A model generated the notes under the pieces. That model searched no databases, was not told where the DNA came from, and worked only from the letters and a program-made list of their open reading frames with translations. The translations under genes and the position numbers were made by a program. 31,636 bases of DNA from Acutalibacteraceae bacterium (GTDB taxonomy: Bacteria; Bacillota; Clostridia; Oscillospirales; Acutalibacteraceae): contig JAZOQD010000146.1 in assembly GCA_045655925.1 (NCBI GenBank), positions 1 to 31,636 of the forward strand. Reading direction: 5' to 3'. Of this stretch, positions 25,589 to 29,963 are shown piece by piece. The number at the start of each line of letters is the position of its first letter. The stretch's first letter is position 1.

Positions 25589-28159
25589 ATGGCAAAGCAG
25601 GAAAATGTTTATTGGCCCAGTAATGAAGAAACCAAAATAGTTCCCGTTGAAATAGTAGATGAAGTCAAAAATAGTATGCTTCAATACGGTATGTCGGTGC
25701 TTGTAGGCCGTGCATTGCCCGATGTTCGTGACGGATTGAAGCCTGTTCACAGAAGAATACTTTATACAATGTATGAAAACGGACTTACTCCCGATAAAGC
25801 CTACCGTAAATGCGCCGATACCGTAGGTGCAGTTCTTGGTCGTTACCATCCGCATGGCGATAGCTCGGTTTATGATGCTATGGTTCGTATGGCGCAGGAT
25901 TTTTCTCTCCGCTATCCCTTGATAGATGGTCACGGAAACTTCGGTAATATTGATGGCTATCCCGCAGCGGCATATCGTTATACTGAGTCAAAAATGAATA
26001 GACTTTCTCTCCATATGCTTGATGATATTGAGAAAGATACCGTTGATTTTGCTCCCAACTATGATGATCGTTTAAAAGAACCAACCGTTCTTCCTGTTCG
26101 TTTCCCGCAGTTGTTGGTTAACGGCTCATCGGGTATCGCTTTTGGTATGGCAACCGAGATTCCTCCGCATAACTTAGCAGAGGTTATTGATGGTATGTGC
26201 TGCCTTATCGATAACCCCGAGGCAGATTTATCGGAAATTTGCGAATTTATTAAGGGTCCCGATTTCCCTACCGGCGGAATCATTATGGGCAGAGCAGGTA
26301 TAAGAGCCGCTTATGCAACCGGTAAAGGAAAAATTATTGTTCGCGGTAAAGCTGAAATTGAAGAAAAACGCGATGGTAAATTCCGCATCGTTATAACTGA
26401 GATTCCTTATAAGGTAAGAAAGAAAGACCTTGTTAAAAAGATATATGATTTAGCCGCCGAAAAGCGTGTTGAGGGTATCGACGATGTTGTTGACTACTCC
26501 TCAAAGAGAGATGGCGGTATCAGAATAGTGGTTGACATAAAACGCGATGCGAATCCGCAGGTTGTGCTCAATAAACTCTATTCATATACCGAGCTTCAGA
26601 CCACCTTTGGCGCTAACTTAATTGCTATTGTAAACGGCAAACCTCAGATTTTAACACTCAAGGAAATGTTGCAGAATTGCATAGATTTCCAGTGTGAAAT
26701 CATTGAGCGCAGAACCCGTTTTGATATGAAAAAGGCGCAGGAGAGAGCCCATATTTTAGAGGGCTTAAAAGTTGCTCTTGACTTTATTGATGAAGTGGTT
26801 AACATAATCCGCAGCAGCAAAACAATTCCGGAGTCAAAAGACCGCTTATCAGAGAGGTTTGGATTAGATGATATCCAGACTACTGCAATCGTTCAGATGC
26901 AATTAGGAAAACTCGCAGGAATGGAAAAACAGAAGATTGAAGATGAGCTCAAAGAGAAATATGAGTTCATCAAAGAATGCATGGAAATTCTTGCTGACCA
27001 CAAAAAAGTTCTCGATATTGTTAAGACTGAGTCGCTCAATCTCAGAGATAAGTATGCCGATGAGAGAAGAACAGAGATTTCGGCGGTTTCGGGTGAGGTT
27101 GATATTGAAGACCTTATTCCTCGAGAGGAATGCGTTCTTACTAAAACCGTCAGCGGTTATATTAAGAGATTGCCCTCTGATACCTATTCAACTCAGCATA
27201 GAGGCGGTAAGGGTATTACCGGTATGACAACCCGTGAGGGCGATATCGTTGAAAATATGTTTACCTGCTGCTCGCATGACTATATTCTCCTCTTTAGTAA
27301 TTTAGGTCGTTTGTATAGAATCAAGGCTTATGAGATTCCCGAGGGAAGCAGAACCTCAAAGGGTATGAACCTTGTAAACATTCTGCCGTTAATGCCAGAT
27401 GAGAAAATTATAAACATTCTCCCGCTTGATGATACGATTGACCTTGATAATCCGTTCTCCGTATGTATGATTACCAAGAAGGGAACCATCAAGAGAACTA
27501 ATATCAGCGCGTTTAAGAATGTTCGCAAGACCGGTATTATTGCAATCAACATCGAGGAAGACGATGAGTTAGCTTATGTTTGCAGAACCTCGGGCAATCA
27601 GGAATTGCTTGTTGCAACAAAGAAGGGCTTCTCAATCAGATTTGATGAGAACGATGCCAGAGAAATGGGCAGAACCGCAAGAGGCGTTCGAGCAATCAAG
27701 CTCCGCGAGGGCGATGAGGTTGTGGGAATGACCGTTTGCGAAGAGGGTAAAGAACTGCTCACTGTTACCGAAACAGGCTACGGAAGAATCAGCAGCTTTG
27801 ATGATTATCGTTTGCAGTCAAGAGGCGGTAAGGGTATTACCAACTACCGCACTGCAAAATACGGAGATGTTGCCGCAGTTATAACCGTTACCAATGAAAA
27901 CGATGTTATTATAATCACATCGGCAGGTATAATTATCCGCGTTCCTGTTGAGGAAATCAGCAGATTCGCGCGTCCGGCAAAGGGTGTCAGAATAATGAGA
28001 GTTAAATCCGAAAACGGAGAAAAGATTCTCTCGGTTGCATCGGCAATCCACGATTCAGAAGAGGTTACCGACCACCCCGAAGCTGCAGAGGCAGATGCCG
28101 CAGATGTGGGCGAACCCGATGAAGCTGCAGAACCTGAAACAGAAGAAACCGAAGAATAA
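25589..28159 (+). CDS. gyrA: DNA gyrase subunit A
   Basis: DGLKPVHRR, YHPHGDSSVYD, catalytic AAYRYTE. GyrA-box QHRGGKG supports gyrase rather than ParC. Acidic tail. Confidence 0.97.
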   Translation: MAKQENVYWPSNEETKIVPVEIVDEVKNSMLQYGMSVLVGRALPDVRDGLKPVHRRILYTMYENGLTPDKAYRKCADTVGAVLGRYHPHGDSSVYDAMVRMAQDFSLRYPLIDGHGNFGNIDGYPAAAYRYTESKMNRLSLHMLDDIEKDTVDFAPNYDDRLKEPTVLPVRFPQLLVNGSSGIAFGMATEIPPHNLAEVIDGMCCLIDNPEADLSEICEFIKGPDFPTGGIIMGRAGIRAAYATGKGKIIVRGKAEIEEKRDGKFRIVITEIPYKVRKKDLVKKIYDLAAEKRVEGIDDVVDYSSKRDGGIRIVVDIKRDANPQVVLNKLYSYTELQTTFGANLIAIVNGKPQILTLKEMLQNCIDFQCEIIERRTRFDMKKAQERAHILEGLKVALDFIDEVVNIIRSSKTIPESKDRLSERFGLDDIQTTAIVQMQLGKLAGMEKQKIEDELKEKYEFIKECMEILADHKKVLDIVKTESLNLRDKYADERRTEISAVSGEVDIEDLIPREECVLTKTVSGYIKRLPSDTYSTQHRGGKGITGMTTREGDIVENMFTCCSHDYILLFSNLGRLYRIKAYEIPEGSRTSKGMNLVNILPLMPDEKIINILPLDDTIDLDNPFSVCMITKKGTIKRTNISAFKNVRKTGIIAINIEEDDELAYVCRTSGNQELLVATKKGFSIRFDENDAREMGRTARGVRAIKLREGDEVVGMTVCEEGKELLTVTETGYGRISSFDDYRLQSRGGKGITNYRTAKYGDVAAVITVTNENDVIIITSAGIIIRVPVEEISRFARPAKGVRIMRVKSENGEKILSVASAIHDSEEVTDHPEAAEADAADVGEPDEAAEPETEETEE

Positions 28160-28191
28160 AAAAACCCGCCTTCATTTTAAGGCGGGTTTTT
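28159..28191. repeat. Terminator hairpin after gyrA; copy 1 of a 33-bp direct repeat
   Basis: AAAAAACCCGCCTTCATTTTAAGGCGGGTTTTT: stem CCCGCCTT/AAGGCGGG with A and T tracts. Confidence 0.9.
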
Positions 28192-28390
28192 TATTTCTCG
28201 GACAATTTTTATCATCACAATCAAGACATAAAGCTTTATAATTTTTAGTTGTGCAACAAATCAGATAATCACATTCATCACAACAGCATTCAAGAAGTTT
28301 GCCTTTAAAATCTTTATGTTTGCCGTTGCCTTTGCAGTTTTTTCCGTTATTTCCCGGAAACAAAACAATTCCGGTAACATCAATAATCAT
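28172..28390 (-). CDS. Small cysteine-rich hypothetical protein (72 aa, 10 Cys)
   Basis: ATG with a GGGGG RBS 7 nt upstream and a TTTACA-N17-TATAAT promoter. Patterned Cys: C-x15-CCC-x2-C-x4-CC-x8-C-x2-C-x4-C. No family recognised. Confidence 0.72.
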   Translation of the reverse strand: MIIDVTGIVLFPGNNGKNCKGNGKHKDFKGKLLECCCDECDYLICCTTKNYKALCLDCDDKNCPRNKKPALK

Positions 28391-28403
28391 ATAAAAACCC
28401 CCT

Positions 28404-28446
28404 ATATAGACTATTACATTATATAACGTAATAGTCTATATGTAAA
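28404..28446 (-). promoter_or_regulatory. SigmaA-type promoter of the Cys-rich gene overlapped by a 38-bp palindrome (putative operator)
   Basis: Minus strand TTTACA (28446-28441), 17 nt, TATAAT (28423-28418). Palindrome ATATAGACTATTAC-a-TTATATAA-c-GTAATAGTCTATAT at 28404-28441. Confidence 0.75.
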
Positions 28447-28499
28447 GAGGGACAATAAGATATTATCTAATAAAAAAGTATGATATGGAGAAATATCTT

Positions 28500-28700
28500 A
28501 TGATTACATTAAACGTAAAGGAATTGTTAGAGAAGAAGGGTAAAACAAAATATTGGCTTTACAAACAGCTCGGTATGAGTTATCAGAATTTCAACAAAAT
28601 GATAAACAATCAAACAAAATCGATAAGATATGAAAATATTGAAACAATGTGCTTGCTTTTTGATTGCACTCCAAACGATTTGTTTAAAATAGAGCTTTAA
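28500..28700 (+). CDS. Xre/Cro-C1 (HTH_26-like) transcriptional regulator, 66 aa
   Basis: LNVKELLEKKGKTKYWLYKQLGMSYQNFNKMINN..KSIRYENIETMC..FDCTPNDLF fits a single-domain Xre HTH. ATG 28500 follows GGAG (the track start of 28485 has no RBS). Confidence 0.85.
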   Translation: MITLNVKELLEKKGKTKYWLYKQLGMSYQNFNKMINNQTKSIRYENIETMCLLFDCTPNDLFKIEL

Positions 28701-28731
28701 AAAACCCGCCTTCATTTGAAGGCGGGTTTTT
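28699..28731. repeat. Terminator hairpin; copy 2 of the 33-bp direct repeat
   Basis: AAAAAACCCGCCTTCATTTGAAGGCGGGTTTTT: 32/33 identical to 28159-28191, offset exactly 540 bp. Confidence 0.9.
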
Positions 28732-29296
28732 AATCTTCAGGCTCTATTATTTTATAGTATGCTCTATAATCCTCGGTCAGTGGTTTTGAAACATCGGTTT
28801 TGTATATGTTCACAATATCGCGACAAATAGATGAAGCATATTCTAAAGTGTTTTTTGTGCCTCCCGATTTCCCGTCAAAAAAGGTAATAACATAGCGGCT
28901 GCGCTCAACCATATATTTATTGCGCTGTGAAAAAGCCCATTTTTCATAACGGTCGTTTAAAACAACAACCTCGTCGGCTTGTTTTGAAAGTGCGTTATAT
29001 CGGGCTTTCCATTCATAGCTCCAGCCTCTTTCCTGACCTTTAAAGGGAATAACGGCGATAAGCTTTATGTCTTTATTGAGTTGTTTTATAAGGGCAACCT
29101 GTTCGGCGGCAATGATATCGAAACCGTTCGCCATTCCTGTATAAAAGGTATTAACCCCATTATTTATGAGCTTTGAAATAGCACCGATAAGGCGGCGCGA
29201 AAAATCATTATATTGAGGGTCGTTTTCGCTTAACGGGAACGGGAATTTATCCGCACGATAACCCGTAAAGCAGCAGCTTTTTTCAATATCGTTCAA
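28730..29296 (-). CDS. DUF1273 / YspA-like SLOG family protein
   Basis: CCFTGYR, FYTGMANGFDIIAAE, AVIPFKGQ, RNKYMVERS, GGTKNT; TTG start after AGGTGAG. Confidence 0.82.
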   Translation of the reverse strand: MNDIEKSCCFTGYRADKFPFPLSENDPQYNDFSRRLIGAISKLINNGVNTFYTGMANGFDIIAAEQVALIKQLNKDIKLIAVIPFKGQERGWSYEWKARYNALSKQADEVVVLNDRYEKWAFSQRNKYMVERSRYVITFFDGKSGGTKNTLEYASSICRDIVNIYKTDVSKPLTEDYRAYYKIIEPED

Positions 29297-29449: not shown

Positions 29450-29926
29450 ATGGATAAAATAGATTATCGTCTTATAAGTCTTTTGCAGGAGAATGCAAGA
29501 ATGCCGCTAAAACAGTTGGCCGAGCGTGTTTTCCTTTCCTCGCCCGCAACCGCAGCAAGACTGGAGAGGCTTGAAAAAAGTGGAATAATTTCAGGCTATG
29601 GCGTTAAGATTGACCATAAAGCCTTGGGCTTCCCGATAACCGCTTTTATAAACCTGGAGGTCCAACCTCAGCAAAAAGCAACTTTCTATCCTTTTATAAA
29701 GGCTCATCCGAACGTTTTGGAATGCAACTGCGTAACCGGTCATTATTCAATGCTGATTAAGGTTGCCTTTGAAAGCACCGAAGCGCTCGATATCTTTATC
29801 GGTCAACTCCAAACCTTTGGAAGCACTCAGACTCAGATAGTTTTCTCAACCGCAAAAGAGGAAACGAGTGTTGAATTAGAAAAGGTTATTGCAGGAGAGT
29901 ATCCCGAAGTTCCGCAGATGAAATAA
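29450..29926 (+). CDS. Lrp/AsnC family transcriptional regulator
   Basis: MDKIDYRLISLLQENARMPLKQLAERVFLSSPATAARLERLEKSGIISGY HTH; ECNCVTGHYSMLIKV RAM domain. Confidence 0.93.
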   Translation: MDKIDYRLISLLQENARMPLKQLAERVFLSSPATAARLERLEKSGIISGYGVKIDHKALGFPITAFINLEVQPQQKATFYPFIKAHPNVLECNCVTGHYSMLIKVAFESTEALDIFIGQLQTFGSTQTQIVFSTAKEETSVELEKVIAGEYPEVPQMK

Positions 29927-29930
29927 GAAC

Positions 29931-29963
29931 AAAAAGACCTATGCTCAGCATAGGTCTTTTTTT
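29931..29963. terminator. Bidirectional intrinsic terminator between the Lrp gene and the PSP1/ricT gene
   Basis: AAAAAGACCTATGCT-c-AGCATAGGTCTTTTT inverted repeat. Confidence 0.88.

Follow-up and report, generated by a model that had tools for sequence, protein, structure and literature searches.

How small accessory genes that carry neither an integrase nor a transposase enter bacterial chromosomes is poorly understood. This question is raised in compact form by a window of 31,636 nt from an Acutalibacteraceae bacterium (the whole stretch of DNA that was analysed, to which all positions refer), in which a two-gene cassette lies between the convergent genes gyrA and ypsA and is bracketed by two copies of one terminator hairpin. 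The cassette encodes a Cys-rich mini-protein and an Xre-type helix-turn-helix (HTH) protein. What has to be explained is how a unit of about 0.5 kb came to lie at this site, and how the hairpin came to stand on both sides of it. The hairpin is duplicated here, and the same pattern recurs, with unrelated hairpins, around related cassettes at other loci; it looks like a recurring route for tiny recombinase-less cassettes into genomes.

The window belongs to a fragmented metagenome-assembled genome (MAG; here G000) of 1.35 Mb in 170 contigs, which is 83% complete; searches of G000 refer to this assembly. The genus was represented by 24 species representatives, the closest being G021 (97% complete), and the Cys-rich family was sampled in 301 genomes of the order and 399 of the class. 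G-numbers denote other genomes, and L-numbers the loci or contigs compared.

The duplicated terminator hairpin between gyrA and ypsA

A repeat search finds one direct-repeat family in the window, at 28159-28194 and 28699-28734, with 34/36 identical positions and a start-to-start distance of 540. An earlier note on this DNA had reported a 33-bp hairpin occurring twice at this distance, the first copy at the gyrA stop and the second overlapping the stop of the DUF1273 gene; the search agrees and extends the repeat (the 33-mers are 32/33 identical, the sole mismatch being a T/G loop base), and the gene ends at 28159 and 28730 agree as well. Copy 1 begins at the last base of the gyrA stop codon (28157-28159), and the ypsA stop codon (28730-28732) overlaps copy 2 by 2 nt. 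The hairpin, of about 33 nt, has a perfect, bulge-free GC stem of 14-15 bp with A and T runs. Whichever strand is folded, both copies form strong hairpins (-20.5 to -23.3 kcal/mol; z-scores from -5.3 to -7.1) that have a U-run on either side, and they therefore look like bidirectional intrinsic terminators, copy 1 for gyrA (+ strand) and the Cys-rich gene (- strand), and copy 2 for the HTH gene (+ strand) and ypsA (- strand).

A pattern of the 28-nt core is never matched in 100 shuffled versions of the window, and a 22-nt core occurs only at these two sites in the whole G000 assembly, in which no half-hairpins were found elsewhere and only 5 repeated pairs exist among 218 strong hairpins. With two copies in G000, the hairpin differs from dispersed repeats such as repetitive extragenic palindromes (REPs), bacterial interspersed mosaic elements (BIMEs) and MITEs (miniature inverted-repeat transposable elements), which have many copies per genome. 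Exact matches to a 26-mer of the hairpin in public metagenome and genome contigs come only from unrelated taxa (Christiangramia and two unrelated contigs) and are taken as convergent terminators.

The DNA between the copies (28195-28698, 504 bp) has a GC content of 29.0%, compared with 40.6% for the genome, which lies in the lowest 0.5% of 504-bp windows in G000. The gene for the Cys-rich protein of 72 aa (28172-28390, - strand) runs into copy 1, where its tail NKKPALK and TGA stop are read; as the earlier note stated, its last codons (six) and stop are thus those of the hairpin. The HTH gene (28485-28700, + strand; HTH_26, E 1.5e-12) ends at a TAA codon (28698-28700) that overlaps the A-run of copy 2. 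The insert ends within the tails of both open reading frames (ORFs) and has no stops or terminators of its own. A GGAG lies upstream of ATG 28500, where the start of the HTH gene is called in L073 and L027 (66 aa), and this ATG is likely the true start. Between the divergent genes, a palindrome (28404-28441; 19+19 nt, 95% complementary by repeat search and folding) has inside it a sigma-70-like promoter for the Cys-rich gene (28418-28446, - strand; TTTACA-17-TATAAT, a consensus match only, at 11/12 positions). This 38-bp palindrome is a probable operator of the HTH protein, which, judged from the arrangement, would bind it and repress the Cys promoter. The cassette encodes no recombinase, as had been claimed before: of its two ORFs, one is an HTH_26 gene and the other has no family, and the ORF list, Pfam and other family searches gave no recombinase match in or beside the insert.

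Several observations establish 28195-28698 as an insertion, which is read as a horizontally acquired two-gene cassette. Its composition is foreign, it was not found in G021, and in G023 the gyrA stop and the ypsA stop are separated by one bidirectional terminator. The last of these is the layout that the earlier note had predicted for a site without the cassette; the terminator in G023 is of different, non-homologous sequence. Of the two outcomes that would speak against that note's reading, neither occurred: the hairpin is no genome-wide repeat, and no relative carries the gene pair at this locus between unrelated terminators. The junction varies within the genus in other ways. G019 has a metallo-beta-lactamase-fold gene there between two unrelated terminators, and the ypsA-lrp pair is inverted relative to gyrA in four genus genomes and located elsewhere in others. 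In G021, only the right hairpin arm stands beside ypsA, and after it comes a multi-copy repeat, about 345 nt in length, with Gut-1 RNA matches. Since the right arm also adjoins ypsA in G021, copy 2 is the resident copy, and copy 1 is read as the left copy of a duplicated target. G021 itself was rejected as an empty site with the order gyrA-repeat-ypsA; its two contigs overlap by just 16 nt, inside the multi-copy repeat, so that the adjacency of gyrA and ypsA is unproven, and a better pairing partner for the hairpin arm left of gyrA lies on another contig.

The structure was not created by misassembly, because the same junctions are present in contigs from other samples and other assemblers. 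Both junctions are reproduced in Logan contigs L073 and L074, the left one in L075 (Logan; all three about 95.6% identical) and L078 (ENA), and the right one in ENA contigs L071, L072, L027 and L077. The two hairpin copies of L073 have identical 30-nt cores, as do those of L074. A further contig, L094 (ENA ERZ1767560 NODE_25807), has a gyrA stop, one hairpin and a ypsA stop, and is 99.7% identical to the window over ypsA-lrp; it has 1.9x coverage and is chimeric. At 175 bp from the junction, clpP-clpX (N-terminus) of another organism, 69% identical to the clpP region of G000, runs into the last 43 gyrA codons through a shared word of about 20 nt (KILSVA), which yields a false 128-aa fusion ORF. 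L094 was rejected as a decisive empty site on account of this join: an assembler that misjoined at a shared word of about 20 nt may also have collapsed the 30-nt repeat.

Bracketing of related cassettes by their own local hairpins

A scan of 57 loci of the Cys-rich gene family, with an exact direct repeat of at least 18 nt across the gene as threshold, finds such a repeat at 7 of them, compared with 10 of 2065 control positions framed in the same way in G000, an enrichment of about 25-fold. At least four clean cases are independent (G000, G019, G556 and G693); they have periods of 540-600 bp, and their hairpin sequences are unrelated to one another.

In G019, which is of the same genus, a Cys-rich gene and a divergent HTH_3 gene at another locus are bracketed by a 32-nt hairpin whose copies, the only two in the genome, lie 599 bp apart. 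At the corresponding locus, G017 and G011 have no cassette and one homologous hairpin, which is the terminator of the right-hand gene, whereas the left-hand gene has unrelated terminators in relatives. As the G019 hairpin is a resident terminator in cassette-less relatives, it is duplicated target DNA and not borne by the cassette.

In G556, which belongs to another family, a 50-nt repeat containing a hairpin occurs twice, 573 bp apart, and a third, more diverged copy follows 623 bp further on. The three hairpins bound two successive cassettes, in each of which an Xre gene is divergent from a small Cys-rich gene. The second of these (CysA) has its TGA stop in the hairpin loop, as in the window. 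The protein of the first (CysB) was considered as a family member and set aside, being not demonstrably homologous (hhalign probability 1.7%). G693 has two copies, 573 bp apart, of a repeat that is about 95 nt long and contains a terminator hairpin. A mismatch-tolerant scan adds diverged hairpin brackets in G504 and G697, and in L024, L026 and L036 the units are in tandem, with the HTH gene itself as the repeat.

Two observations of other kinds concern members of the family. In L117 (G667:C6), a Cys-family gene and a RelE/ParE-like pair lie between direct repeats of about 60 nt, 1089 bp apart, which are the 3' end of a neighbouring gene, i.e., a long target duplication without a hairpin. In G556, a split or frameshifted gene resembling a Y1 transposase of the REP-associated tyrosine transposase (RAYT) or IS200 type (RLKNFDYSADGYYFITICTHNRQKLFGEIV...; L103:311-540, G556:C16:15069-15440) begins at a distance of 12 nt from the array's first hairpin; its Y1_Tnp score of 21.1 bits is below the cut-off.

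Proposed entry at a terminator and the competing explanations

The reading that we favour, with confidence somewhat above an even chance, is a terminator-targeted insertion that duplicated the whole hairpin, directed by its structure and carried out by an enzyme in trans. The cassette belongs to a widespread Clostridia family of cassettes of about 0.5 kb and would have entered at the single bidirectional terminator of the convergent gyrA and ypsA genes, duplicating the hairpin of about 34-36 bp in full. After insertion, all four genes would own a terminator, and a hairpin copy would supply the stop codon of the Cys-rich gene. The insertion machinery would recognise a hairpin or cruciform structure rather than a sequence, because related cassettes at unrelated loci are bracketed by their own local hairpins. 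Most likely, the hairpin would be extruded and nicked at its two bases, on opposite strands, after which the incoming DNA would be joined and the gaps filled in; this has the geometry of an ordinary target-site duplication, only as long as the hairpin. The enzyme probably acts in trans, given that the cassette has no recognisable recombinase.

As to what the enzyme might be, a dedicated hairpin-specific enzyme in trans, for example a RAYT-like Y1 enzyme, can be proposed tentatively, at rather less than an even chance. Y1_Tnp was found in G019, G556 and G693 and not in G000 or G021, so that RAYT is a lead only. That the units of about 0.5 kb are a new class of mobile element, in which the Cys-rich mini-protein, with or without the HTH protein, is a structure-specific nuclease or integrase, is highly improbable; were it true, they would be the smallest self-mobilising DNA element known. 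An origin of the repeat-length duplication of the CRISPR-integrase type was rejected, as Cas1 was not found in G000.

Spread after entry can be distinguished from entry itself. Between the window and a sister lineage (L073, L074 and L075), identity is 94.1-95.3% in gyrA, 94.5% in ypsA and 96.6% in lrp plus the PSP1 gene, compared with 98.8% in the cassette and 100% in the HTH gene. The low-divergence tract extends from about 28128 to about 28808 (about 680 nt) and, besides the cassette and its two hairpins, includes some 30 nt of gyrA and some 78 nt of ypsA; beyond it, there is an abrupt change to a ypsA allele of the G021 type. Because this tract extends past both hairpins, the cassette has been exchanged between lineages about 5% apart by crossovers in the flanks. 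The exchange is a population-level mobility independent of the hairpins, and the flank recombination tract points to ordinary homologous recombination as the process that spread the cassette between sister lineages after its first entry. In public runs (X1-X6, from goat, sheep and bovine gut samples), the words of the cassette are present at a share of 0.69-0.83, compared with 0.52-0.57 for the stretch with its flanks.

Several observations weigh against entry by hairpin duplication. About 50 of the 57 loci have no bracketing repeat, the clean cases besides G000 being G019, G556 and G693. Among the bracketed cases, G693, G525 and G504 are genomes rich in dispersed REP-like repeats, related genomes with bracketed cases are non-independent, and the control frequency comes from the single genome G000. 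Modules in other families are old by their sequence divergence. The cassette is present in one copy in G000, and the searches found no near-identical copy at another locus. The only empty-site contig with the same hairpin at this locus is the chimeric L094. Homology of L027 to the window stops exactly at the inner edge of hairpin 1, so that either hairpin 1 may have arrived secondarily or the L027 strain may have undergone a further change. Finally, as to the insertion enzyme, neither Y1_Tnp nor Cas1 was found in the 83% of the genome that G000 represents.

The first competing explanation is a one-off illegitimate insertion of a DNA fragment, acquired from another bacterium, beside the ypsA terminator by microhomology or homology-facilitated joining, in which the hairpin was duplicated by chance. 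Recurrence within the family would then reflect selection that retains selfish or useful modules, together with the fragility of palindromes, and no dedicated mechanism. The ends of the insert, inside both ORF tails and without stops or terminators of its own, suit such an event, as does the lack of bracketing repeats in most family members. Palindromic terminators are also hot spots that receive other DNA (a transposase-like, insertion sequence (IS)-like unit in the loop of hairpin 1 in L076, and the Gut-1-containing repeat in G021), and restriction-modification genes offer a known case of long target duplications in which mobility genes are absent (PMC2853133). A chance event is harder to reconcile with at least four independent events in which the whole local hairpin was precisely duplicated with a similar period of 540-600 bp, with the approximately 25-fold enrichment over the control positions, and with the two successive cassettes in G556 that are bounded by the same hairpin. 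On balance, this explanation is unlikely.

It is distinctly unlikely that the cassette first lay beside ypsA with its own Cys tail and terminator, hairpin 1 being a later copy of hairpin 2 that arose by template switching, by gene conversion or by the spread of hairpin modules between loci. The state before such copying would be that of L027 (98% identical to the window), which keeps hairpin 2, and in which the Cys-rich gene ends with NHNYRPCR* in a different hairpin, the homology breaking at the inner edge of hairpin 1. Hairpin arms and stops are moreover shared by unrelated loci (gyrA and a beta-galactosidase gene, and mntP and ypsA, in G021; C144 and C59 in G000), as spreading modules would lead one to expect. 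Yet of the variant flank in L027 just 48 nt are known, from a single contig of 5x coverage, and these have no match in G000 or any of the loci compared. In addition, no mechanism is known by which a full copy, its loop oriented alike, would be set precisely between two stop regions, and full bracketing is present at four unrelated loci.

The earlier note had proposed recombination at the terminator, with a 540-bp circle as the entering form. Entry at the terminator stands, with duplication of the whole hairpin; the hairpin is not, however, a sequence-specific att site carried by the element. Recombination between a circle with one hairpin and an identical hairpin in the chromosome (attP x attB), brought about in trans by an Xer-type or other recombinase, is very unlikely. 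Its geometry fits, the repeats have the same orientation and include the unpaired loop, and the single-hairpin arrangement of the chimeric contig L094 would be its exact reciprocal product; the three copies of one hairpin beside Cys-family genes in G419 show, besides, that a hairpin can travel with the gene. The bracketing hairpins, by contrast, are wholly different between events, and the one in G019 is a resident terminator. In seven other genomes the terminators on the two sides of the module are unrelated, and no repeat of more than 14 nt flanks it, so that a common core at independent insertions, as expected of an att site, is lacking there too. As the hairpins are locus-specific, a circle carrying a hairpin cannot explain the first entry. 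By our reading, the plain perfect stem is unlike dif and lacks the features of attC; gyrA is situated in the origin region and not at the terminus, and the tract shared between lineages ends in the flanks and not at the hairpins. A cognate recombinase was found neither in cis nor, as Y1_Tnp or Cas1, in G000 (83% complete). Also suggested before was that the unit might be the remnant of a larger element, which is unlikely because the same size of about 0.5 kb recurs. A misjoin within the MAG, to which the fragmentation of G000 into 170 contigs and the chimerism of one public contig of the locus (L094) might lend colour, can practically be dismissed, since the same junctions are given by at least six independent assemblies, which were made from different samples by two assemblers.

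The hairpin of G419 just mentioned is a terminator (AAGACGAGATTTGAAATCTCGTCTT; L120, L137 and L139) with exactly three copies in the genome, each less than about 400 bp from a Cys-family gene. The three loci have blocks of homology and an inverted segment between them, which end at hairpins.

Known systems, the cargo family and other repeated palindromes

Insertion with long target duplication is a described pattern for which we know of no mechanism. As described by Furuta, Abe and Kobayashi (2010; PMC2853133), who cite Nobusato et al. (2000), it is recognised by an insert between genes without transposase or integrase, flanked by direct repeats of more than 30 bp, of which the empty site has a single copy and which are unique in the genome. 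In the Haemophilus examples, these repeats share a few bases with the 3' ends of neighbouring genes; the cargo is restriction-modification genes, and the repeats are called 'long and variable' (PMC2853133). Hairpins are assigned no role in that text, in which 'palindrom' and 'terminator' have 0 occurrences (PMC2853133). The insert studied here is shorter than 20 kb, has no mobility gene or recombinase, and is flanked by direct repeats of more than 30 bp (34/36 nt, with identical 30-nt cores in L073 and L074) that are not high-copy. A single-copy relative is available for the G019 case, on the right side only, as the one homologous hairpin in G017 and G011. The cases differ in that the cargo here is a repressor and a Cys-rich mini-protein, that the target is exactly one terminator hairpin, and that one cargo family has the pattern repeatedly and in tandem. 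A compact cassette family with a recurring pattern, a whole-hairpin target and arrays makes a specific idea testable, namely structure-specific cutting at both bases of the hairpin. It also suggests that intrinsic terminators could be reusable landing pads, at which a new gene would gain a terminator, and here a stop codon too, and the neighbours would keep theirs.

Minimal mobile elements of Neisseria reportedly spread by homologous recombination in their flanks. Like the cassette, they are strain-variable cargo between conserved genes without mobility genes (PMC1538595, citing Saunders and Snyder, 2002). The tract of about 680 nt that reaches past the hairpins fits this mode of spread, and the contents of the gyrA-ypsA junction differ among G023, G019 and G000. 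Minimal mobile elements, however, need no flanking repeats, explain spread and not first entry, and predict no duplicated hairpin.

Integron attC cassettes and integrase-less attC clusters are likewise short cassettes with imperfect palindromes recognised by structure, and form arrays (compare G556). The hairpins here differ from attC sites in being local terminators derived from the target, with a perfect stem without bulges and, by our reading, no R or L boxes; attC sites span about 57-141 nt and have bulges, outer boxes and a nearby intI, and the window has no integrase-like ORF (intI was not searched genome-wide). Integrative mobile elements exploiting Xer (IMEX) and the pdif modules of Acinetobacter plasmids are small and recombinase-less, have repeated conserved XerC/XerD-binding sites, and are moved by host enzymes. 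In the present family, unlike these, the bracketing sequence changes at every locus. Extragenic hairpins as insertion targets are shared with palindrome-targeting ISs, such as IS1397 and ISKpn1 of the IS3 family and IS621 of the IS110 family (PMC1525189), and with the REP/RAYT system, and the weak Y1_Tnp-like remnant abuts the G556 array. The ISs insert inside the palindrome with short duplications and have their own transposase, whereas here the duplication comprises the entire hairpin, of which there are two copies and not hundreds.

The cargo itself is a module of gut and rumen bacteria that consists of a strongly conserved Xre repressor with its putative operator and an uncharacterised Cys-rich protein, the latter found in about 8% of the sampled genomes of the class. 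The Cys family was detected in 18 of the 301 order genomes and 33 of the 399 class genomes, with at most 6 copies per genome. Within the genus it is present in 4 of the 24 representatives, at other loci in the three besides G000, and was not found in G021. The Cys-rich protein has no Pfam, NCBIfam or PADLOC match and has 79 homologous clusters in a large protein collection. An alignment of 24 sequences has 18 invariant columns and a free C-terminal tail, the window protein being 51-89% identical to the others. It fits the N-terminal part and the ECCCDECDY..CC core of the family consensus (MIIDVTG..PGN.G..C.GNGKH...ECCCDECDY..CC...C..C.D..CPR). Its AlphaFold2 model is unusable (pLDDT 51), a search of the Atlas gave no hit at 0.9 or above, and a profile search of the PDB gave nothing below E 0.27. 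A stop codon read from a terminator is common in the Cys gene family, so that the stop in the hairpin, which the earlier note had pointed out, is no special mark of this copy.

In many genomes, the Cys-rich gene is divergently paired with the same HTH gene across the same palindrome. Across families, the HTH protein is 75-96% identical in amino acids, compared with 46-60% for the Cys-rich protein; the HTH genes are 71-83% identical in nucleotides, with 48/72 third codon positions identical to the nearest one. The closest relatives of the cassette, P0002 and P0004, adjoin prfA, and their flanks share nothing with the window. Similarity of the HTH protein to PezA and PDC-M69A is weak. The pair does not resemble a type II toxin-antitoxin system, in which a co-transcribed pair of recognisable family is expected; the genes are divergent and the Cys-rich protein has no family.

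Orthologues of the HTH protein (81-86% identical in amino acids) also occur in L022 (G006:C3), L023 (G017:C52) and L021 (G022:C46), where the divergent partner is a 156-aa paralogue of YpsA/DUF1273, degraded in G022. The DNA upstream of the HTH orthologues is homologous in these three genomes, and the palindrome itself is matched only in G022; repeats bracketing these modules were not found. The window HTH gene converges on ypsA, whereas the orthologues diverge from the YpsA paralogue. These pairings suggest either a functional link between the repressor and SLOG/YpsA proteins or a portable repressor-operator unit with exchangeable partners.

Other DNA has entered terminator hairpins in this group. 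In L076 (positions 270-564; ENA ERZ27302939), hairpin copy 1 is interrupted at its loop, between AAAAAACCCGCCTTCAAATG and TGATATGCACC... The first ORF of the inserted unit (MRKKGSKNKLYSAEFK...) has a transposase-type HTH (HTH_28, E 7e-6) and resembles an IS3-type OrfA by eye, and the insertion extends the Cys-rich protein to 79 aa. The non-coding repeat of about 345 nt in G021 has at least 10 copies (L020:2396-2732, L064, L062/L063/L065/L066), with a Gut-1 RNA match (RF01706) of 50.4 bits at one of them. It lies inside terminator loops, between arms ATGCTGTGC and GCACAGCGT on C52 and between AAAAAAACGCCTGATGG and CCATCAGGCGTTTTTT, which are split over C73 and C28. Many G021 contigs end in this repeat, and partial copies are present in G000 (C98, C34 and C61).

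Hairpin arms, together with the adjacent stop and last codons, are common to unrelated gene ends in G021 (L018, L067, L020 and L019). The arm GAAGAATAAACAAAAC.CCTC.GGCA is shared by the gyrA 3' end (L018) and a beta-galactosidase-like gene (L067, C19), and AAGATTAAAAACCCGCCTTCAAATGA by the mntP 3' end (L020) and, as reverse complement, the ypsA 3' end (L019). In G000, C144:1377 and C59:16836 have arms of 15-16 nt in common and different loops. The palindromes with shared arms reach into the last codons of both convergent genes.

A further type of terminator repeat in G000 concerns tRNA genes. On C3 (L085, about 330-640) and C79 (L086, about 300-560), after tRNA-Arg(tct) and tRNA-Val(gac), respectively, the last 20 nt or so of the tRNA recur together with the terminator hairpin at distances of 187 and 196 bp downstream, around a conserved insert of about 110 nt. 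This insert has no convincing Rfam match, all being below the gathering score, and shows compensatory changes between the two loci (GGTGC/GCACC and GGCAC/GTGCC).

The genes that flank the cassette are gyrA on the left (25589-28159, + strand; 856 aa from the ORF list, with Pfam DNA_topoisoIV and DNA_gyraseA_C on the same gene in L075) and, on the right, the DUF1273/YpsA gene of the SLOG family (28730-29296, - strand; Pfam YpsA, E 7.4e-24). The divergent partner of ypsA, known from genus synteny, encodes an Lrp/AsnC regulator (29450-29926, + strand). A second perfect bidirectional terminator, with a 14-bp stem, lies at 29931-29961 between this lrp-type gene and a PSP1-domain gene.

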